Shown: positions 1 to 8,594 of the stretch, one piece after another
Numbering within the stretch: position 1 is the first letter of the stretch
How the letters are laid out: the number at the start of each line of letters is the position of its first letter
IMG/VR virus record: IMGVR_UViG_2740892431_000003
From: a virus
Taxonomy: Duplodnaviria; Heunggongvirae; Uroviricota; Caudoviricetes
DNA: 8,594 nt
Reading direction: 5' to 3' (one strand)
Notes under the pieces: generated by a model
Databases searched by the model: none
The model's input: the letters and a program-made list of their open reading frames with translations, nothing else
Told to the model about the DNA's origin: nothing
Made by a program: the position numbers and the translations under genes

Positions 1-344
1 AAGGGCGCGTGCGCTATCCACTTTTTTGCCCGTCCATATTCAACGGCTTCTTTGAGGAGTTCATTTTCCATCGTTTTCTTGCCGAGCAGGCGCTGGAGTT
101 CTTTAATCTGCTTCATGGCGGCAGCAAGTTCAGAGGCAGGAACAACCTGTTCTCCGGCGGCGACAGCAGTAAGACTTCCTTCCTGGTATTGCTTACGCCA
201 GAGAAATAACTGGCTGGCTGCTACACCATGTTGCCGGGCAACGAGGGAGACCGTCATCCCCGGTTCAAAGCTCTGCTGAACAATTGCGATCTTTTCCTGT
301 GTGGTACGCCGTCTGCGTTTCTCCGGTCCTAAGACATCAATCAT
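1..344 (-). CDS. insC: IS2 transposase OrfA (InsC), first ~114 codons; 3' end lies off-window
   Basis: Minus-strand translation from ATG at 344-342 gives [114 protein letters not shown], which matches IS2 InsC from memory. The ORF track missed it because it runs off the window edge. Confidence 0.85.
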
Positions 345-435
345 CTGCTCTCCAATGACTAGTCTAAAAACTAGTATTAAGACTATCACTTAAATAAGTG
401 ATACTGGTTGTCTGGAGATTCAGGGGGCCAGTCTA
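1..435 (-). mobile_element. IS2 (IS3 family) insertion sequence, partial: terminal inverted repeat plus 5' part of orfA; element continues beyond window start
   Basis: Reverse complement of 395-435 reads TAGACTGGCCCCCTGAATCTCCAGACAACC, matching the IS2 terminus as I recall it; orfA (InsC) starts 90 bp inside. The element boundary at 435/436 coincides with the abrupt start of integrase-like coding sequence. Confidence 0.85.
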
Positions 436-747
436 CAAATCGACAGAACGGTGAAAATAATAAATGAAGATGGTGAGCATATTCAGGGCTTCACCGTACA
501 CGATATGCGCCGTACAGCCAGTACGTTGTTGCATGAGGCTGGTTATCCTTCAGACTGGATTGAAAAGGCTCTGGCACATGAGCAGAAAGGTGTGCGCGCC
601 GTATATAACAAAGCGGAATACGCCAGACAGCGCGCCTACATGTTGCAGCAGTGGGCCGATATGATTGATTCATGGATTGACGGGGAGCATACGGATCTGA
701 TTCCGTTCTCCCCGTCGAAGTTTGAGAAGTGGATGGCGGGGGAATAA
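436..747 (+). pseudogene. int: 3' fragment (C-terminal ~103 aa) of a P4-family tyrosine integrase, truncated by the IS2 insertion
   Basis: In-frame translation from 436 gives QIDRTVKIINEDGEHIQGFTVHDMRRTASTLLHEAGYPSDWIEKALAHEQKGVRAVYNKAEYARQRAYMLQQWADMIDSWIDGEH... This carries the HxxR box and the C-terminal catalytic Tyr region (VRAVYNKAEY) typical of P4/CP4-57-type integrases. The frame is open right up to the IS2 end and has no ATG start (only an internal GTG at 451); ~300 N-terminal codons are missing. Confidence 0.75.
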
Positions 748-750
748 CGT

Positions 751-945
751 TTAATAGTTCTGCTGATTTTCTTCCATCTCTGCTTCTGCTGCCAGTGATT
801 CAATTTTGTTTTCGAATATTGCTGACAGTGTTGCAAATTCAGCATCAGTGACAGCGGGAATTGGAACAAACCTGATCCCGCTGTGTGCAAGCATGTTTGC
901 AGTTTCAAGGCATTTTCTTAAATCTGCTGGTGATGCCCTGTTCAT
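751..945 (-). CDS. hypothetical small protein (64 aa), last gene of the leftward operon
   Basis: ATG at 945-943 overlaps the methyltransferase stop codon (ATGA arrangement), implying translational coupling. Translation MNRASPADLRKCLETANMLAHSGIRFVPIPAVTDAEFATLSAIFENKIESLAAEAEMEENQQNY. Stop at 751-753 is 3 nt from the convergent integrase stop. No recognisable family. Confidence 0.4.
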   Translation of the reverse strand: MNRASPADLRKCLETANMLAHSGIRFVPIPAVTDAEFATLSAIFENKIESLAAEAEMEENQQNY

Positions 946-1592
946 GCAGCACGCTCCCGCCCCTGGATGTCTGTTGGTGACAGCGGAGCATTGCTGAATG
1001 CATTTGTTAATCCGCCAATATCCAACGCGTATCCAGGGTGTAGTTGCACTGCCGGGTCTTCGCACTGATTACCCCAAACATCAAAGCCATGAGACGTCTG
1101 GCGGGCGAACAGTTCAATGCGAGAAACATCGCCTAATAATTGCACAAGTTTTTCACGAACGATATCTGGCTTTCTTGAATGCTCAAGCCGCGGTGCGGTA
1201 AATGACTGAACGATCCCTGCATTAATGCGCGTAGGTAGTTTTCCCTTTACCGCAAACAGGCAATCTTCACTATTGGCGCGAGTCATGTGTCCCATACCCA
1301 TAACCAGTTTATCTGGTTGTCGACTACCACATTTTATCCACGTGAAGCCCTTCATCGTCATCAGACGGAATCCCCAGGCTTCAACAACTTTTAGTGCTTC
1401 GAGTGGTTGTGTTGGCACCCACCACATGGCCAACAGACAGTTTTCATCGGCCAAATCCCACACAGGAAGGCGGCAGATATCCAGCACACTCATAACCGGA
1501 TATTTAAAACCGGCACCGCGATTACCATCTGCGGCTTTGTCCCGGTATACCCAGGGTGGATCTGCATAGATTAGTGTGTATTTCTTAGTCAT
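942..1592 (-). CDS. MT-A70 family DNA N6-adenine methyltransferase (phage orphan methylase)
   Basis: N-terminus MTKKYTLIYADPPWVYRDK...KYPVMSVLDICRLPVWDLADENCLLAMWW has the DPPW catalytic motif and the layout of phage MT-A70/Dam-like methylases. The start could be the ATG at 1592 or the GTG at 1604; the 1592 ATG overlaps the upstream ORF's stop (ATGACTAA). Confidence 0.8.
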   Translation of the reverse strand: MTKKYTLIYADPPWVYRDKAADGNRGAGFKYPVMSVLDICRLPVWDLADENCLLAMWWVPTQPLEALKVVEAWGFRLMTMKGFTWIKCGSRQPDKLVMGMGHMTRANSEDCLFAVKGKLPTRINAGIVQSFTAPRLEHSRKPDIVREKLVQLLGDVSRIELFARQTSHGFDVWGNQCEDPAVQLHPGYALDIGGLTNAFSNAPLSPTDIQGRERAA

Positions 1593-1884
1593 AAACCACC
1601 CCACAACATCCTATGCCGCTATAGTCGCCACGGCGAAGGCCGTTACCTTTTGTGATACATTGGTCCCTGCGAACCGCGATCCTTGCACGTTCAACATCAC
1701 CAGAAGCAACATCCATACACTGAAGCCAAAGGTGAGCGGCAATGCGGAATTGCCCTTTTTTCTCTCTTTCAATCGCGCGTTTTTCGATCTCTATCGCCGC
1801 AGGAGTAACGGCGACAATCTTTGACGGACTGCGCATTGAAACCTTATTCATGTGATATTTTTCAAGTCGGCTTAACTTTCTCAC
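1585..1884 (-). CDS. hypothetical protein (~99 aa; start uncertain, GTG at 1884 or internal ATGs)
   Basis: Minus-strand ORF co-directional with the operon; its stop overlaps the methyltransferase start. The sequence looks protein-like (…KIVAVTPAAIEIEKRAIEREKKGQFRIAAHLWLQ…) but I do not recognise a family. Confidence 0.4.
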   Translation of the reverse strand: MRKLSRLEKYHMNKVSMRSPSKIVAVTPAAIEIEKRAIEREKKGQFRIAAHLWLQCMDVASGDVERARIAVRRDQCITKGNGLRRGDYSGIGCCGVVYD

Positions 1885-1993
1885 TTAATCCAACCCTCTC
1901 TGAAAATTAATGCCAGCAGATAAAGCCATGCTGAAACAGAGGCCAGGAATAAGTACCATCCTGACCATTTGCTCCAGTGCCTTAGCAGCGCAC

Positions 1994-2242
1994 TCATGCA
2001 GCGTTGCTCACGGGACGATATACACGTTGCTGAACAGGAGGCTTTTTACCCTGGAACTCTGCCGGGCTTGCTGCCTGACGTTCATCAAGCCAACGCTCAA
2101 CTTCATCACGGTTCCATGCGCAGCGTTTATCGGTGATATACCAGCGTTTAGGAAATTCCCCTGCGCGCTCCATACGGTCGATAGTGCTCCATGACAGTGG
2201 CACCACCGCCAGGAGTTCTTTCTTACCTAATGCACCTTTCAT
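1994..2242 (-). CDS. AlpA/excisionase-like HTH DNA-binding protein (Phage_AlpA family-like)
   Basis: MKGALGKKELLAVVPLSWSTIDRMERAGEFPKRWYITDKRCAWNRDEVERWLDER fits the AlpA/Xis pattern (L..V..S.STI.R....G.FP......W...EVE.WL). RBS AGAGAGG sits 6 nt upstream of the ATG. Confidence 0.6.
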   Translation of the reverse strand: MKGALGKKELLAVVPLSWSTIDRMERAGEFPKRWYITDKRCAWNRDEVERWLDERQAASPAEFQGKKPPVQQRVYRPVSNAA

Positions 2243-2264
2243 GAATACCTCTCTTGGTTGCAGT

Positions 2265-2283
2265 GCGGCGCACGTGGCGCCGC
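2265..2283 (-). other. GC-rich perfect hairpin (GCGGCGC-acgtg-GCGCCGC) with no U-tract, in the recT-alpA intercistronic space
   Basis: 7-bp all-GC inverted repeat with a 5-nt loop, seen directly. No T-run on either strand, so it is not a canonical intrinsic terminator. Confidence 0.3.
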
Positions 2284-2291
2284 GGTGGTGG

Positions 2292-3314
2292 TTACTCGAA
2301 TTCTGGACGCATATCGTTAAGCGTCATCATGAATTTTTGGTGATATTCATCACCGAGCTTTTCAGCCATGGTGTTAATTTCATTTTCAGCGCGCTTGAAC
2401 ATCGTTTTTGCATCTTCAGCAGATGGATCCAGGCTATTAAGTATCGCGATGATATATTCTCGAGCTTCTTCTCGTTCTGAATCTGAAATTGGCGACAGGT
2501 GTTGACGCTCATCGTCAACTACGGAATATTCACCAGTGATAACAGCTGCGTTATCTTGGCTAAGTCCAGCTTCAGCGCGCTCATCCATAACAACAGCCTT
2601 CTGCATTTCAATAGAAACAGGAAGATATTTGAACAGTCGGCGAATTACTGTTTTTTTAGCCATCTCATCGAAGTGATCAACCCATGGGCCACTGCTACCG
2701 GCTTTGCTCAGTGCACGAACTTTCTCAACGTCTGCCCGGCTCATAACTTCAAATTGGACTCCGCCATCTTTCAGTCGTGCAACGGCGTAAACGTGCGTTA
2801 ATTCTCCGCGGTCACCTGTTTCGCAAGGTAAATGCTCGAGCGTTTCTTCCAGGCCGTATGAGTAGCTGAATTTGTCGTTTGTATGTACGGTACGAGCCGA
2901 GATACTCAGGATCTGCCCAGAGCGGCGGGCAAGGTCAATCATTCCGCGATAGCCGATAATCAGCTGTGCTTCTGTAGATACGGTTTCCCATCTTCCATTT
3001 ACTTTCTGGCGTTTGTCGAACGGTATCAGGTAAGCGTGTCCAAGAGCTCCGCCTGGTTCAAGACCCAATTGGGCACATTGCATAATTGCCCCCAGGAAGC
3101 TGGCTTGGTCGCATGATGCAAGTTTTGGAACCTTTCTGATCTCTGTGGTTGCTATGCGCGCCAGACGGTCTGCTGTCATGTGCTTTGGAAGTGCCAAAGC
3201 CATCTGAGCTTTAATTTTTGGGTCTGCCAGAAGTCCGGCCAGAGTTGTTGGTTTCTCATTATGATGTGCAACTTGGTTACCGGTAGCCGCTGCCTTAAGT
3301 GCATTGATAGACAT
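2292..3314 (-). CDS. recT: RecT-family single-strand annealing protein
   Basis: Strong resemblance to Rac RecT: ...MTADRLARIATTEIRKVPKLASCD...AQLGLEPGGALGHAYLIPF...LIIGYRGMIDLARRSGQI...THVYAVARLKDGGVQFEVMSR...GPWVDHFDEMAKKTVIRRLFKYLPVSIEMQKAV. RBS AGGAGA precedes the ATG. Confidence 0.9.
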   Translation of the reverse strand: MSINALKAAATGNQVAHHNEKPTTLAGLLADPKIKAQMALALPKHMTADRLARIATTEIRKVPKLASCDQASFLGAIMQCAQLGLEPGGALGHAYLIPFDKRQKVNGRWETVSTEAQLIIGYRGMIDLARRSGQILSISARTVHTNDKFSYSYGLEETLEHLPCETGDRGELTHVYAVARLKDGGVQFEVMSRADVEKVRALSKAGSSGPWVDHFDEMAKKTVIRRLFKYLPVSIEMQKAVVMDERAEAGLSQDNAAVITGEYSVVDDERQHLSPISDSEREEAREYIIAILNSLDPSAEDAKTMFKRAENEINTMAEKLGDEYHQKFMMTLNDMRPEFE

Positions 3315-3323
3315 TTTTTCTCC

Positions 3324-4223
3324 TTACTTCATTCTGAAGACGCGTTGTGTCGTTGTTGTTTTGAATTTTTCGAATAACTCAGGGTGTACTGACTGGAATA
3401 GCTTCTGGTCGAATCTGTTGCTGATCTGAGATTTCCATGTGCAGAGCGGCTTTCCGTCCAGGGTCAGGACTGAGTGCTCTTGCATGTACATCTTCAGCTT
3501 CTCTTCTGATATAGCTATTTCTTCTTCCAGTGATTTTCTGCGTGATTTCATGTCTCGTAGATCGTTGAATAGTGCGAGTGCCTTTCCGTCAGCCTCGATA
3601 CTTGTCCCGGCATCTTTCTCAAACATCAGCGATACATCGCTTACGCTGGTAGCTTCCGGCGGGTTAAGATTTTTCACTCGGTCCCAGAAAGCGATTTCTT
3701 TTTCTAAGATCGCCTGGATAGTTTCTTCATCACGCTCAACCCGATAGATTCGGAAGTCGTCGCCACCGATAAGCACACCGAAAACGCATACCTGTTTGTT
3801 TGTAACCATCAACCCGTGCATGGCCTGGGCCGTGTAATGCACAGGAATTGCATCTGTCTGGATTTCTCCCCATTCTTTGGCTTTGAACGGACTAACTGTT
3901 TTGATCTCAATGTTCTCGCCTGACGCTGCTTCTGCATCGATCTCAGCTGCAATAAAATCGTAATCACGGTGGATATAGCGGTTTCCGCGATGAACGATTT
4001 CCATCCCTGTTTCCTCAGAAAGCAGGTCTATTACGTATGGCTCCATACGCTGGCCACGCGTGAAAACTTTCTGCTTGCTTGGGTCTACTGGTTTGACACG
4101 TGGCTGGACCTTATCCAGATAAACCTCAAGCGGGGTGCGCCATGGGCTAATTCCAAGAATCCCTGCAACATCGCTTCCTCCGATGTATTTTGTTCTATCC
4201 ATGATTCCAGCGTTCCGCATCAT
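3324..4223 (-). CDS. YqaJ-like (lambda Exo-like) 5'-3' exonuclease, recombination partner of RecT
   Basis: Sits immediately upstream of recT in the same operon. The N-terminal region (…YIGGSDVAGILGISPWRTPLEVY…, later …YYTAQAMHGLMVTNK…) fits the YqaJ viral recombinase fold. ATGA overlap with the upstream gene's stop; an internal ATG 21 nt downstream is an alternative start. Confidence 0.8.
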   Translation of the reverse strand: MMRNAGIMDRTKYIGGSDVAGILGISPWRTPLEVYLDKVQPRVKPVDPSKQKVFTRGQRMEPYVIDLLSEETGMEIVHRGNRYIHRDYDFIAAEIDAEAASGENIEIKTVSPFKAKEWGEIQTDAIPVHYTAQAMHGLMVTNKQVCVFGVLIGGDDFRIYRVERDEETIQAILEKEIAFWDRVKNLNPPEATSVSDVSLMFEKDAGTSIEADGKALALFNDLRDMKSRRKSLEEEIAISEEKLKMYMQEHSVLTLDGKPLCTWKSQISNRFDQKLFQSVHPELFEKFKTTTTQRVFRMK

Positions 4224-4519
4224 GCCGCGTCCCTCTGCCCATCAAGCTGATCCGCCAGATCCCAGCGCGCTATAATTGCCATTGCCTCGCGCCGGTAGGC
4301 ATCCATCAGTTCTTCGAACTCAGGGCTGTCTTTAGCAGCCTCCAGCACTTCCTGACGAACGCCTTTGCCTGTTACAACGTCGAAAGTTGAGGACAGTTGA
4401 TGAAGTCGGATGCTCTCAATCAGTTCAACTTGTCGGTCATATAGCTGTTCTGACAGGCGGTAGTCCTTGTCGAATGCCAGCATGATTTTTTGAAGATTTT
4501 TCTGCTGATTAACGTTCAT
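4220..4519 (-). CDS. hypothetical protein (100 aa), second gene of the leftward operon
   Basis: Strong RBS GGGAGGG 6 nt upstream of ATG 4519; its stop overlaps the exonuclease start. Translation MNVNQQKNLQKIMLAFDKDYRLSEQLYDRQVELIESIRLHQLSSTFDVVTGKGVRQEVLEAAKDSPEFEELMDAYRREAMAIIARWDLADQLDGQRDAA. No family recognised. Confidence 0.5.
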   Translation of the reverse strand: MNVNQQKNLQKIMLAFDKDYRLSEQLYDRQVELIESIRLHQLSSTFDVVTGKGVRQEVLEAAKDSPEFEELMDAYRREAMAIIARWDLADQLDGQRDAA

Positions 4520-4521
4520 TA

Positions 4522-4674
4522 TCAGCCCTCCCATATCTCGTTATCGTTGGCTACATCGCGAGCTTCTTTGCTGACGAAAGCCCACTTAATGCCTTCCTGT
4601 AAGGTGCGGAACTTCCAGCTCATGAATCCGCATGCAGTAACGCAGTACCAACCGTTGATGATTTTCCACTGCAT
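4522..4674 (-). CDS. small Trp/Cys-rich protein (50 aa), promoter-proximal gene of the leftward operon; absent from the ORF track (below length cutoff)
   Basis: Hand translation: MQWKIINGWYCVTACGFMSWKFRTLQEGIKWAFVSKEARDVANDNEIWEG. RBS GAGGT lies 9 nt upstream of the ATG, and the stop TGA sits 2 nt before the next gene's ATG. It occupies the position of lambda N/cIII/kil-type small early genes. Confidence 0.4.
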   Translation of the reverse strand: MQWKIINGWYCVTACGFMSWKFRTLQEGIKWAFVSKEARDVANDNEIWEG

Positions 4675-4692
4675 AACTTGTTACCTCGGTCT

Positions 4693-4771
4693 GTTACCGT
4701 TGAGGTAATAATTATGCGTATTTGGTTTGATGTCAATAGATATGAGTTAAAAAAATTACCCATTAGGTAAT
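4693..4771 (-). promoter_or_regulatory. Leftward early promoter (pL-like) with two flanking 17-bp palindromic operators (OL)
   Basis: Operators GTTACCgttgaGGTAAT (4693-4709) and ATTACCcattaGGTAAT (4755-4771). On the minus strand a -35 TTGACA (complement of 4731-4736) is followed ~17 bp later by an AT-rich -10 (AATTAT) that overlaps the 4693-4709 operator. Confidence 0.5.
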
Positions 4772-4780
4772 AGTATAGGC

Positions 4781-4805
4781 AATAAAAAAGCCGCCAGAAG
4801 GCGGC
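4781..4805 (-). terminator. Rho-independent terminator downstream of the repressor gene
   Basis: Minus-strand RNA would form GCCGCC-UUCU-GGCGGC followed by UUUUUUAUU (plus strand 4781-4805 reads aataaaaaaGCCGCCagaaGGCGGC). Confidence 0.7.
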
Positions 4806-4827
4806 TTACTTACTGAAAAGTATGATT

Positions 4828-5412
4828 TTATTGTTTGTTTTTTTCGTTCTGGTTGATGACAAATTCAATGTAACTTTCGATCTTTGCTTTCTCGGTTTCG
4901 GGTAACAATGCGTAGCGCGAGCGGTCATAGTTGATGGTCGCAGGGTCGTGCGGGTGAATCAGTAATTCATAGCCGTGACGCCCGAATGCGGATGCAACAT
5001 TCTCCAGGGTGGAAATGGAAACGCTGACCTCATTGTTTAACAGGCGACTGATTGTCACCTGGGCGACGCCGGATGCGCGGTGAAGTTTTCCCTGCGTTGA
5101 AAGGTCGCGGCTTTCGCTCATCCAGCGTTCCAGGTTGTGAGCCGCCAGCTGACCAATGTCGCTTGGGCCGACAGGCTGAAAACCTTCCTGAGAAAGCGAG
5201 CGATCGATATCAAGCCAGTTACGGGGTTTATTGGCGGCAGCTTCAATTTTTCGTGCAACCTGGTCGCCGATAACCTTCTTGCCAAGAGCCCAGCGGTTTA
5301 CCAGATTTGCCTGAGTTCCAAGTTTTTCTGCCATCCGCGTCTGAACACCATTGAATTCACGGTCGATCAAGTCGTTGAGATTTTGCCTGCGGACGTCCTG
5401 GATACTTTTCAT
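4828..5412 (-). CDS. Prophage repressor (CI-like role) with two tandem XRE-type HTH domains and no S24 peptidase domain
   Basis: First HTH roughly …VQTRMAEKLGTQANLVNRWALGKKVIGDQVARKIEAAANKPRNWLD; second roughly …LHRASGVAQVTISRLLNNEVSVSISTLENVASAFG. Placed between the divergent operator-bearing promoters, followed by its own terminator. The C-terminus has no Ser/Lys peptidase motifs. Confidence 0.7.
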   Translation of the reverse strand: MKSIQDVRRQNLNDLIDREFNGVQTRMAEKLGTQANLVNRWALGKKVIGDQVARKIEAAANKPRNWLDIDRSLSQEGFQPVGPSDIGQLAAHNLERWMSESRDLSTQGKLHRASGVAQVTISRLLNNEVSVSISTLENVASAFGRHGYELLIHPHDPATINYDRSRYALLPETEKAKIESYIEFVINQNEKNKQ

Positions 5413-5466
5413 TTTCTGGAAAATCGCCTCATATATGAATCAGTAGATGATTCAATTTAAAGCAAT

Positions 5467-5531
5467 ATTACCCAACAGGTAAATGCACCTCATAGGTAAC
5501 TATCCTTGATTTTTGTTACCTTATGGGTGAA
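5467..5531. promoter_or_regulatory. Immunity-region operators (OR) in the divergent promoter region between the repressor and the Cro-like gene
   Basis: ATTACCcaacaGGTAAA (5467-5483), abutting weaker site TGCACCtcataGGTAAC (5484-5500), and GTTACCttatgGGTGAA (5515-5531). A candidate -35 TTGATT (5505-5510) for the rightward promoter sits just upstream of the third site. Confidence 0.55.
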
Positions 5532-5566
5532 TATTTATTATCTGAAATAAATATCAGGCAATAGCT

Positions 5567-5797
5567 ATGAGCGATAACGGACATTTCGATTTCAAAAAGC
5601 ACTGGCTTGCACTTACTCCGGATGAGCGTGAAGCCTTCGCACAGGAAGCCGGAACGACGAGTCACTATATCCAGACTCACTTAACAGGTAAGCGCAAAAT
5701 GCCAGGTAAGGTATTGATGAATGGGCTTTTTAAAGCCTGTAAAACAAGACAATGGCTGCGCTCAAAAGCAGAACTGGCATACTTCTTCTACTCATGA
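5567..5797 (+). CDS. Cro-like small DNA-binding regulator (putative), first rightward gene
   Basis: 76 aa, divergent from the repressor, immediately downstream of the operator cluster and followed by a terminator. The call is positional plus a weak HTH-like segment (LTPDEREAFAQEAGTTSHYIQTHLTGKR); the family assignment is tentative. Confidence 0.5.
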   Translation: MSDNGHFDFKKHWLALTPDEREAFAQEAGTTSHYIQTHLTGKRKMPGKVLMNGLFKACKTRQWLRSKAELAYFFYS

Positions 5798-5819
5798 TAT
5801 CCAGCTACAACCCTCTGTA

Positions 5820-5844
5820 GACCGCCACCCGGCGGTCTTTTCAT
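5820..5844 (+). terminator. Rho-independent terminator after the Cro-like gene (tR1-like position)
   Basis: GACCGCC-accc-GGCGGTC stem-loop (5820-5837) followed by TTTTCAT. Confidence 0.55.
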
Positions 5845-5947
5845 ATCTATTCGTACCTCAAAGGTAATAAAAAACCAAATCTGGTTGATCTTTTTTTTGT
5901 GTCAGCACAAAATGACCGTAACCCCAATACTAATAGCAGGGCTTACC

Positions 5948-6148
5948 ATGGAAATCATTACACGTATTGATGCCGCAAAGCGCGGACTTAAACGCTACTA
6001 CACCGGAAAACCATGTAAGCATGGACATGACAGTGAACGCTGGGTTTACAACGGACACTGTGTTGAGTGCACCATGGAATCAAACCGTCGCATCAGGGCA
6101 GAGATTAAGCAGATCATGATTAATTCCTCCCCACAACACTCAAGCTGA
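5948..6148 (+). CDS. small putative zinc-binding protein (67 aa) at the cII-equivalent position
   Basis: MEIITRIDAAKRGLKRYYTGKPCKHGHDSERWVYNGHCVECTMESNRRIRAEIKQIMINSSPQHSS carries a C-x-H-x-H … H-C-x2-C cluster. I chose the ATG at 5948 over the upstream ATG at 5912; neither has a strong RBS. Confidence 0.45.
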   Translation: MEIITRIDAAKRGLKRYYTGKPCKHGHDSERWVYNGHCVECTMESNRRIRAEIKQIMINSSPQHSS

Positions 6149-6163
6149 TAGCGGAGATTAATC

Positions 6164-6997
6164 ATGAGCAGACATGCAACAGATTGGGCCTGGGAGACAG
6201 ATCCAGGTAGCTCATCATTAAAGCTCATACTGCTCTCGATGGCTGACAGAGCCGATGAATATAACCTCTGCTACCCCAGCATAGAACGCCTCGTTAAAGA
6301 CACTTGCCTGAATAAAAAAACCGTGCAGGCCGGGCTTATATCGCTCATGAAAATGGGGCTTATTTCAGATACCGGAGAGAGAAAGGGAGCGACAAAAAGA
6401 GTGCGGGTTTTCTCTCTTAATATAACCAAAAACGGGAACATTAAAGGCAACCGGGAGGGGGGCAATGAACCCGAAAACGGTAATGTTACCGAAAACGGGA
6501 ATATACCCAAAAACGGGATGTTGAATGATCCCAAAAACGGGATGTTGAATGATCCCAAAAACGGGATCCAGAACCAGTCATATAACCAGTCATTTAACCA
6601 AGAGAGGGAGAGCAGGACAAAAACCGGGGATTCTGTTCCTCATGACCCCGGCGCAAACAACGCCGTGATGAATAACTTTGTTCCTCCTGGTGGGCCAGGG
6701 CAATTAGGTAAATTTGTCATGCATGAACAATGGCAGCCATCAGATGACTTTCTTCGGAAAAGCTCATTGCAGGGAATCTACCTGGACAGTCTGCCAACGG
6801 CACAGGAACTTGCAGAGTTCAGAATTTACTGGATGGCTGAGGGTAAGGCATACCATCAGGCACAGTGGGAGCAGAAGCTGGCAAGGCGCATCCAGTTCTG
6901 TAGACAGAAATCAGGTGAAGTCAGAAAGAGCCTTGACTGGCATAACACTGACTGGATAGATGAGGTGTGGGATGAAATCAACTCCAGAACTTCTTAA
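6164..6997 (+). CDS. Replication initiation protein (lambda O-like; N-terminal winged-helix DNA-binding domain, low-complexity iteron-encoded linker)
   Basis: N-terminus MSRHATDWAWETDPGSSSLKLILLSMADRADEYNLCYPSIERLVKDTCLNKKTVQAGLISLMKMGLISD is typical of phage replication-initiator HTH domains. It sits directly upstream of, and overlaps, the P-like gene and contains the iteron array. RBS GGAG precedes the ATG. Confidence 0.7.
   Translation: MSRHATDWAWETDPGSSSLKLILLSMADRADEYNLCYPSIERLVKDTCLNKKTVQAGLISLMKMGLISDTGERKGATKRVRVFSLNITKNGNIKGNREGGNEPENGNVTENGNIPKNGMLNDPKNGMLNDPKNGIQNQSYNQSFNQERESRTKTGDSVPHDPGANNAVMNNFVPPGGPGQLGKFVMHEQWQPSDDFLRKSSLQGIYLDSLPTAQELAEFRIYWMAEGKAYHQAQWEQKLARRIQFCRQKSGEVRKSLDWHNTDWIDEVWDEINSRTS
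6425..6571. repeat. Iteron array (putative phage origin of replication) embedded in the O-like gene
   Basis: At least six direct repeats with core (A)CC(C)(A/G)AAAACGG(G/T)A starting near 6426, 6470, 6488, 6506, 6530 and 6554, at 18-24 bp spacing. This includes a perfect 24-bp tandem duplication (6506-6529 and 6530-6553). A second short direct repeat AACCAGTCAT(A/T)T follows at 6572-6600. Confidence 0.6.
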
Positions 6998-7754
6998 TGA
7001 GTACGATCGCTTTCGTGGTGGGCATGACCACTCGACGGCGGTTGCTTCTGCTGACGATGAAAGGGCAAAGAAGGAGCAGGTTGCAAGAATTTTCAACGAA
7101 ATGTTTGTCCAGTTACAGGCTGCATTTCCAGGCAGCATCGCTGCTATCAGCGAGCAAGGAAAGCTAAACGAATTTCGAAAACAATGGATGCTTGCGTTTC
7201 TGGAGAATGGGATCACAACAATGGAACAGGTTAACGCTGGTATGCGCCACGCCCGCGCCAGTGAATCTCCGTTCTGGCCGTCGCCTGGGCAATTCATCAA
7301 GTGGTGCAAAGACAGCAAGATGGTTCTTGGCGTCACCATTGACGATGTGATGGCGGAGTTTCACCGGTACAGCAAGGAAAAAAGTTTATATCCTGGTGGT
7401 CCCGAAAGATTCCCGTGGCGACATCCGGTTATGTACTGGGTCGTATGTGATACCCGCCGTGCAATGTATCAGCGCCAGCTTAGCGAGATTGAGGTTGAGA
7501 AACACGCGCGCAGGCTGCTCGATGATTGGGCGAAAAAGGTGGCTTCCGGACAGCAGATACCCGATCCGGTGATCAGCATACAGGCAAAGCCAGAACCCAT
7601 GAGTACACCTCCGGACACAGGGAGAGACGTTTACCATCCACCAGGGCGAAGTTTCGGGTGCATGCCTAACGCCGCCACCCTTGGGGGAATAACACCGGCG
7701 CAGTGGCTGATGGAGGAATACAGGCGGGGAAAGGCGGCAGGATTTATCAAGTAA
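6972..7754 (+). CDS. Replication protein P-like (DnaB helicase loader, lambda P family)
   Basis: …IFNEMFVQLQAAFPGSIAAI…FRKQWMLAFLENGITTMEQVNAGMRHARASESPFWPSPGQFIKWCKD… closely parallels lambda P as I recall it (ITTMEQVNAGMR, PSPGQF). I chose the ATG at 6972 with RBS GAGGTG upstream; it overlaps the O-like 3' end as in lambda. Confidence 0.85.
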   Translation: MKSTPELLNEYDRFRGGHDHSTAVASADDERAKKEQVARIFNEMFVQLQAAFPGSIAAISEQGKLNEFRKQWMLAFLENGITTMEQVNAGMRHARASESPFWPSPGQFIKWCKDSKMVLGVTIDDVMAEFHRYSKEKSLYPGGPERFPWRHPVMYWVVCDTRRAMYQRQLSEIEVEKHARRLLDDWAKKVASGQQIPDPVISIQAKPEPMSTPPDTGRDVYHPPGRSFGCMPNAATLGGITPAQWLMEEYRRGKAAGFIK

Positions 7755-7759
7755 TACCA

Positions 7760-7779
7760 GCGCGATAGCGCATTTTTTT
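7760..7779 (+). terminator. Possible weak intrinsic terminator after the P-like gene
   Basis: Short GCGC-gata-GCGC hairpin followed by aTTTTTTT. The stem is only 4 bp, so confidence is low. Confidence 0.35.
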
Positions 7780-7790
7780 ACGTCTCGATG

Positions 7791-7869
7791 ATTACCTACT
7801 GGGTAATAAAATATTCTAAAATCTATTGATTTAGTGTCTTATGTGGTTTTTAATTACCTCAGGGGTAAA
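7791..7869 (+). promoter_or_regulatory. Third operator-flanked sigma70-like promoter upstream of the DUF1064-like gene
   Basis: Operators ATTACCtactgGGTAAT (7791-7807) and ATTACCtcaggGGTAAA (7853-7869) bracket -35 TTGATT (7826-7831), a 17-bp spacer and -10 TTTAAT (7849-7854). The downstream operator overlaps the -10 and start region; RBS AGGGG precedes ATG 7872. Confidence 0.5.
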
Positions 7870-7871
7870 TC

Positions 7872-8216
7872 ATGAGAAAACAGATACAGGCTCTTGGTCG
7901 ACTCAAAACAGGCCAGATGAACAAAACAGAATCTGCGTATTGCCAGCACCTTGAGCAGCGTAAACGTGCAGGGGAAATCGCCTGGTATCGGTTCGAGGGT
8001 ATCAAGCTGCGGTTAGCTGATAACACGTTTTATACGCCAGATTTCGCTGTGATGCTCGCCACCGGCGAGATGGAACTGCACGAAGTGAAAGGTTTCTGGA
8101 CCGACGACGCCAGGGTGAAAACCAAAGTCGCCGCAGATCAGTATCCGTTCCGAATCATCGGGGTAACGGTTAAACCAAAGAAAGCAGGTGGCGGCTGGAA
8201 CATCGAAGAGTTCTGA
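7872..8216 (+). CDS. DUF1064-like phage protein with a PD-(D/E)xK nuclease-type motif (putative endonuclease/resolvase-like)
   Basis: …ESAYCQHLEQRKRAGEIAWYRFEGIKLRLADNTFYTPDFAVMLATGEMELHEVKGFW…QYPF resembles the conserved core of small phage DUF1064 proteins (D…E.K signature) as I recall them; not verified by search. Confidence 0.5.
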   Translation: MRKQIQALGRLKTGQMNKTESAYCQHLEQRKRAGEIAWYRFEGIKLRLADNTFYTPDFAVMLATGEMELHEVKGFWTDDARVKTKVAADQYPFRIIGVTVKPKKAGGGWNIEEF

Positions 8217-8277
8217 ATCGACGATCTTTTTAGTTATCAATGTAATCAATAAGTTATGTGGATAAGCGAGGGTAAAG

Positions 8278-8594
8278 ATGGAAAGTAATATCAAAGGGTT
8301 AGTTGCCGCCGGGCATGAGATGGCTTCGGAACTGAAAGCAGAATGTGGTGCCGTTGATATGCGCAGTGTGGCAAAGCTGATCAGCGATTTGGCAACGCAA
8401 CTGGAAGTGCAATTGGTGCGTGCTAATGCGCTGGCATCACTGGAGGCAGAGCCAGTGGCAAAAATTATAGCTCACTACCCATTAGGAATTGACGTAGGCA
8501 AACAAAAGTTCGTACAGGCCATTGGAGAGCTTCCTGACTTTGGAGGACATCTATTCGCCGCTCCACCCGTTCCAGTAGTACCGGAAGAAAAACC
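8278..8594 (+). CDS. hypothetical phage protein, 5' part (ORF runs off the window end)
   Basis: RBS GAGGGT is 5 nt upstream of ATG 8278. The frame stays open to the window end: MESNIKGLVAAGHEMASELKAECGAVDMRSVAKLISDLATQLEVQLVRANALASLEAEPVAKIIAHYPLGIDVGKQKFVQAIGELPDFGGHLFAAPPVPVVPEEKP… No family recognised. Confidence 0.5.
   Translation, partial: MESNIKGLVAAGHEMASELKAECGAVDMRSVAKLISDLATQLEVQLVRANALASLEAEPVAKIIAHYPLGIDVGKQKFVQAIGELPDFGGHLFAAPPVPVVPEEK

Follow-up and report, generated by a model that had tools for sequence, protein, structure and literature searches.

An IS2 end adjoins the 3' remnant of a guaA-site prophage integrase gene in a draft Escherichia coli genome

How did a prophage integrase gene of E. 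coli come to be reduced to its 3' quarter beside an IS2 element, and what would this mean for the prophage that carries it? The window analyzed here, that is, the whole stretch of DNA at its full length of 8,594 bp, is the entire draft contig JSVP01000111.1 of the short-read E. coli assembly GCA_001651605.1. We consider it highly probable that IS2 inserted into the integrase gene of a temperate prophage of about 39 kb, that the remnant is dead and that the prophage has lost its own integrase. According to the proposed mechanism, IS2 landed in the integrase gene of a prophage at the guaA site and broke it at codon 314/315 of 416; the prophage would then be unable to make its own integrase, and Int-dependent excision would be lost unless the enzyme were supplied in trans. 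The left edge of the contig (window base 1) is an assembly break within the repeated IS2, inside orfA. Because this edge lies within a repeat, statements about the upstream side are all limited, and the 5' part of the integrase gene is out of reach of the window. The remainder of the prophage lies on other contigs, so that its being locked in the chromosome, as the original prediction proposed, can only be inferred.

IS2 belongs to the IS3 family and transposes by a copy-out-paste-in route through a minicircle, and a standard insertion duplicates 5 bp. In addition to OrfA, the full element comprises an IRR end, a programmed -1 frameshift and OrfB, which carries a DDE (rve) catalytic domain. 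The features at the left end of the window are as follows.

1-435, minus strand: left part of IS2 (IS positions 1-435, reversed), 430/435 identical to K-12 IS2A and cut by the contig edge at base 1
344->1 (1-344), minus strand: IS2 orfA (insC), codons 1-114, incomplete, with PF01527 (HTH_Tnp_1; E=1.4e-19) at residues 8-87 of 114
394-435, minus strand: IS2 IRL of 42 bp, the recipient end, which contains the inward PIRL promoter and whose tip, TAGACTGGCCCC, matches six K-12 copies (IRL length and roles from PMC3299598)
436-438, plus strand: orphan triplet CAA, matching neither IS2 nor integrase, where intact alleles read CTG (codon 314)
439-747, plus strand: 3' remnant of the guaA-site prophage integrase, codons 315-416 and stop, 309/309 nt identical to intact alleles and with a C-terminal PF00589 match
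451-747, plus strand: ORF of 98 aa with an internal GTG as its start, listed by the depositors as 'hypothetical protein OO96_24220' (OAO62087.1)

Neither the IS2 part nor the integrase match is due to chance (E-values 0 and 6e-160). The reverse complement of positions 1-435 aligned, over its full extent and without gaps, with the annotated K-12 MG1655 element IS2A at its left end (L004 1761-2195), with 5 mismatches in 435 bases (98.9% identity). Copies that are 100% identical to the window variant occur in many E. coli genomes, including strain CT265, where the element is annotated as 'IS3-like element IS2 family transposase'. On the reverse complement, positions 394-435 form a terminal inverted repeat with the IS2 IRL sequence (TAGACTGGCCCCCTGAATCTCC...) that differs from the IRL of K-12 IS2A at IS positions 32 and 42 only. 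The canonical IS2 tip TAGACTGG (plus strand: ...CCAGTCTA) ends exactly at 435, and since all six K-12 copies start with TAGACTGGCCCC and end with GGGGCAAATCCA, the tip of the window copy can be set precisely at this base. Directly inside the IRL lies the HTH transposase-family domain of OrfA, whose gene runs off the contig at codon 114. Only the left third of IS2 falls within the window, with OrfB, the frameshift site and the IRR beyond base 1; the end that faces the integrase fragment is the IRL. The window element thus resembles the K-12 MG1655 copies IS2A-IS2K in its IRL tip, its OrfA and its overall identity, and, like K-12 IS2A, D, F and I, it interrupts a gene of which annotated fragments are left. 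Many of the top matches to the window IS2 in E. coli genomes were observed to run 2-3 bases beyond the tip.

On the other side of the junction, positions 439-747 are identical to intact integrases in six complete genomes, where the exact copies always lie under a full-length 'tyrosine-type recombinase/integrase'; the segment as such is carried by 552 of 5,426 complete E. coli genomes. The remnant is also identical, residue for residue, to positions 315-416 of the commonest full-length allele, P0067 (WP_000954558.1; 416 aa). This places the breakpoint between integrase nucleotides 942 and 943, with 75% of the protein absent from the window. The first possible start codon (ATG, GTG or TTG) in the reading frame of 436-747 is the GTG at 451; upstream, the frame is closed by an in-frame TAA at 391-393 inside the IS. 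The original prediction had described an IS2 end abutting a truncated prophage integrase, of which only a C-terminal catalytic segment remains in a frame with no ATG start, and all of this was borne out.

Intact homologues carry the domains PF13356 (Arm-DNA-bind_3), PF22022 (Phage_int_M) and PF00589 (Phage_integrase). At the N-terminus they match arm domains of known structure from CP4-like integrases (3ju0, 3jtz and 2kj8), which identifies the gene as encoding an integrase of the P4/CP4 type, in agreement with the comparison to P4-family enzymes that had been suggested. A WD40 match that came up alongside was weak and was discarded as spurious. PF13356 and PF22022 fall within residues 1-314, a part of the protein that the window does not include, and the remnant therefore does not itself display the domain arrangement of a P4/CP4-type integrase; its PF00589 match covers profile positions 123-170 of 172 (27.2 bits, with a cut-off of 27.1). 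Alignment of P0067 with lambda Int indicated that the remnant retains H335-x-x-R338, H361 and Y370, with Arg I (R238) and the beta-hairpin Lys (~264) upstream of the break and hence missing. About half of the R-K-H-R-H/W-Y active site is therefore left, with no DNA-binding domains. Compared with P4/CP4-57-type integrases, the fragment keeps the HxxR, His and Tyr motifs but lacks two catalytic residues and both DNA-binding domains. Judged from its sequence, it is a remnant of a member of the tyrosine recombinase family rather than a functional member. Devoid of Arg I, the catalytic Lys, the arm- and core-binding domains and a start or promoter of its own, it would be a dead gene fragment, which upholds the earlier view that the integrase is non-functional.

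The surroundings of the remnant identify the prophage and its attachment site. In IAI39, BCE049 and fS10a, the intact integrase gene lies 193 bp downstream of guaA. The closest complete relative is fS10a (99.1% over window positions 439-8435), in which a prophage of ~39.5 kb with both att sites, int/xis, and terminase, portal, capsid, tail and lysis genes sits between guaA and yfgI; the window covers only the first ~8 kb of such a prophage, with int broken. In fS10a (L007), direct copies of a 17-bp repeat, ATTGAGTGGGAATGATT, flank the prophage at 2577-2593 and 42081-42097. Because this repeat overlaps the guaA stop codon, the phage would rebuild the 3' end of guaA on integration. A tRNA attachment site next to the integrase, which had been anticipated, was rejected, as the intact relatives use the 3' end of guaA. 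The other genes of the window are listed below.

751-945: DUF1382 gene
Further genes: MT-A70 methylase, PerC-like activator, excisionase-type regulator, RecT, YqaJ/RecE-like exonuclease, repressor, Cro-like protein, O-like and P-like replication proteins

These genes have the same lengths as in the intact relatives and full-length PHROG matches. The expectation that the immunity, recombination and replication modules look intact is thus supported by full-length genes within the ~8 kb that are visible.

The junction itself is less tidy than it first appeared. The integrase frame had been predicted to start exactly at the IS2 terminus (435/436); the IS tip does lie at 435, but integrase homology begins at 439, not 436, with CAA in between, and the best matches in all 552 genomes start at 439. 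The pattern of CAA followed by integrase sequence (CAAATCGAC..., CAAATCGACAG...) was not found in species-representative genomes or viral contigs, nor was there any such allele among the matches in the 552 genomes. As no integrase allele with CAA was found, a pre-existing polymorphism seems unlikely. The 5-mer on the IRL side, the only flank of the element that is visible, reads CAAAT, in comparison to CTGAT in every intact allele, such that three of five bases agree (C436 and the AT at 439-440) and two differ.

In order to judge this mismatch, the flanks of other IS2 copies serve as a control. Five of the six full-length K-12 copies have perfect 5-bp duplications (ATTAC, GGGTT, GCCAC, GTTAT and CCTTG), whereas the IRL flank of the window copy mismatches the expected target 5-mer. 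The K-12 exception, IS2H (L011 2862-4192), has the flanks AAGTT/ATAAA with no matching duplication and lies among pseudogenes. Likewise, the CT265 copy (L006 605-1935) has the flanks TGTTG/ATTAG with no matching duplication and adjoins a truncated gene. The position of these two unduplicated copies beside pseudogenes or truncated genes suggests IS2-associated rearrangements. Given the mismatch between the CAAAT flank and the CTGAT target, a clean simple insertion is not established for the window. The triplet may reflect either a simple insertion with a 2-base change in the IS-proximal duplication, or an IS end that was joined to the integrase later. TTG, the reverse complement of CAA, stands directly outside the IRL in three of the eight IS2 copies inspected, namely the window copy (436-438), K-12 IS2K (L013 2679-2681) and the CT265 copy (L006 1936-1938), a sample too small to call a target preference.

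We somewhat favor direct insertion, with the 5' part of int beyond the IS on another contig and CAA as an irregularity of the junction. Both the IS and the integrase remnant are still identical to intact copies elsewhere, which implies that the event is recent and private to the strain. A simple insertion predicts a counterpart junction of the form ...AACTCTCTGAT/TGGATTTGCCCC..., in which the IS2 IRR follows integrase nucleotides 1-944 immediately downstream of guaA, with CTGAT as the duplication. The IS2-integrase junction of the window is absent from the 5,426 complete E. coli genomes, the GTDB species representatives and the JGI metagenomes, and a degenerate DNA pattern for the 5' junction had no match in viral or metagenome contigs. 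At the protein level, a search with integrase residues 1-314 returned no int::IS2 fusion among the matches listed, in which matches of odd length were contig-edge partials and frameshifted copies. A chimeric query consisting of integrase residues 215-314 and the three read-through frames of the IS2 IRR gave, among the matches listed, integrases alone and fusions of IS2 to many other genes, but none to int. Ten predicted fusion proteins (two alleles at five junction positions each) were looked up exactly, and none is present in the protein collection. The fusion protein searches consider only candidates that pass a shared-word filter, and many full-length integrases are evidently absent from their output, which makes these negatives weak. 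In addition, the fusion queries depend on the N-terminal allele, which varies among close relatives, and the sister contig might end only a few bases away from the IS.

The principal alternative, to which we give roughly one chance in three, is an IS2-associated rearrangement, which might have been a deletion adjacent to the element, a recombination event involving two IS2 copies or an illegitimate deletion with its end point 3 bp outside the IRL. The 5' three-quarters of int, perhaps together with attL and the guaA flank, would then be deleted or located elsewhere, and the prophage, rather than simply being interrupted, would lack its left end. The CAA triplet and the mismatch between IRL flank and target are consistent with such an event, as are the positions of K-12 IS2H and the CT265 copy, which lack matching duplications and adjoin pseudogenes or truncated genes. 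Further support comes from another lineage of the same prophage (L008/P0131), in which a deletion from the 3' end of int through recT exists, and from the lack of any fusion ORF for the 5' half in the protein collection or the viral and metagenome contigs, among the matches listed. However, in adjacent deletions made by the transposase the new flank is joined to the exact IS tip, which leaves three extra bases equally unexplained, and C436 together with the AT at 439-440 still fits three of the five target bases. The fusion searches, moreover, are lossy, in view of the word pre-filter, and depend on the N-terminal allele and on the edge of the sister contig.

A more specific origin of CAA (TTG in the orientation of the IS) is conceivable, although in our analysis improbable: the triplet might be donor-site DNA carried over from the minicircle junction, either as a 3-bp spacer or as a 5' flap that was kept and took the place of the three bases of the CTGAT duplication nearest to the IS. 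The spacers of IS2 minicircles have been described as 1-2 bp in length, functional minicircles are reported to require a 1-bp spacer, and the distance between catalytic centers is 5 bp (PMC3299598). The IS2 literature offers no standard route to three extra bases (PMC3299598), and spacer carry-over was rejected as the standard cause of CAA, as the reported spacers are shorter and are normally lost on integration (PMC3299598). If carry-over did occur, the triplet would be the natural trace of an inexact processing step at the IS2 recipient end. The three-base irregularity at the IRL junction is the sole unusual detail of the locus and a small curiosity for specialists in the IS2 mechanism.

It is very unlikely that the IS2 and integrase segments were wrongly joined during assembly. 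The contig is from a short-read draft and ends in a repeat, and its junction is in no other genome searched. On the other hand, the junction lies 435 bases inside the contig and falls exactly at the canonical IS2 tip, which is not expected of a random chimera. Moreover, the two sides share no k-mer able to mislead an assembler, and the contig is recorded for two samples.

Expression of the remnant was considered from both sides of the junction. The IS2 transposase genes point away from the integrase junction. PIRL is an inward-facing promoter within the IRL, and the strong junction promoter is confined to the minicircle (PMC3299598). Fusion promoters arise from an outward -35 hexamer located in the IS2 IRR (PMC9330008), i.e. 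at the end of the IS that lies outside the window, and from there it would read antisense to int. A consensus promoter scan of the plus strand identified a single site, at 432-461, with 9 of 12 matches and against a chance expectation of 1.1 +/- 1.1; its -10 element lies downstream of the GTG at 451. The idea that outward promoter activity of IS2 affects the adjacent sequence was therefore abandoned for this junction, where the IS end is the IRL, PIRL reads inward and the scan is at chance level.

The same observations bear on the 98-aa ORF, which is most likely a gene-caller by-product only; the exact ORF is recorded on just two contigs, JSVP01000111.1, whose length and gene arrangement are those of the window, and one other. 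That it encodes a small functional protein, made from the integrase C-terminus and expressed in its own right, is scarcely credible, even though the frame is open and annotated and a weak promoter-like site overlaps the junction: the internal GTG start has no Shine-Dalgarno-like sequence in positions 436-450 upstream of it, the promoter-like site is at chance level with its -10 misplaced, the product would lack Arg I, the Lys and all DNA-binding domains, and the sequence is identical to intact alleles, showing no sign of separate evolution. An identical ORF is also called in L003, simply as a result of a 1-base deletion that shifts the integrase frame.

Insertion of IS2 into int, as the reading that we prefer, can be set beside other, independent disruptions of the same integrase gene at the same guaA site. 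In L003 (3406-4655), the integrase is frameshifted by a 1-base deletion at int nucleotide 803, and P0122 and P0123 are likewise frameshifted copies. In L008 (6001-7041), which corresponds to P0131 with 214 member sequences, a deletion has removed the 3' end of int through recT, so that integrase residues 1-296 run into DNA next to the exonuclease gene. The lesions in these copies are point mutations or deletions, in contrast to the IS junction in the window. A looser parallel was noted in K-12 (L013 1251-4012), where the P4-type integrase pseudogene intB of the cryptic prophage PR-Y (leuX) lies 240 bp from IS2K, a roughly similar pairing of a decayed integrase and IS2.

Disrupted integrases are well documented in defective E. 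coli prophages, with IS insertions as a listed cause of such defects (PMC2669165). The window resembles Sp3, Sp11 and Sp12 of O157 Sakai and the K-12 cryptic prophages in that int is disrupted and other modules remain; it differs from them in that the disruptor is an IS2 and the event is private to one draft genome. The disabling of a prophage integrase by an IS is a known phenomenon and belongs to ordinary prophage decay. Defective prophages can still be mobilized with help from other prophages (PMC2669165), and for this reason a locked state is not guaranteed. If the prophage is otherwise complete, it probably still represses, replicates and recombines but would not be excised by its own integrase, which is relevant only to users of the isolate. 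The case has little significance beyond the strain; it serves as an example of IS elements disabling integrases and of how draft contigs that end in an IS hide half of the event.

Some minor observations concern the remainder of the window. The matches of the closest relatives end at 8435, and the final ~159 bases (8436-8594) have no alignment with them; this end of the contig is probably a mosaic boundary. The PerC-like activator gene (1585-1884) encodes 99 aa in the window and in IAI39 and 83 aa in fS10a and BCE049, a difference of start codon or allele. Within the O-like initiator gene (6164-6997), three adjacent short tandem-repeat arrays with periods of 18, 24 and 12 occupy positions 6469-6600 and encode an Asn/Gly-rich stretch. 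These arrays resemble iterons, as in a lambdoid origin located inside the O gene.
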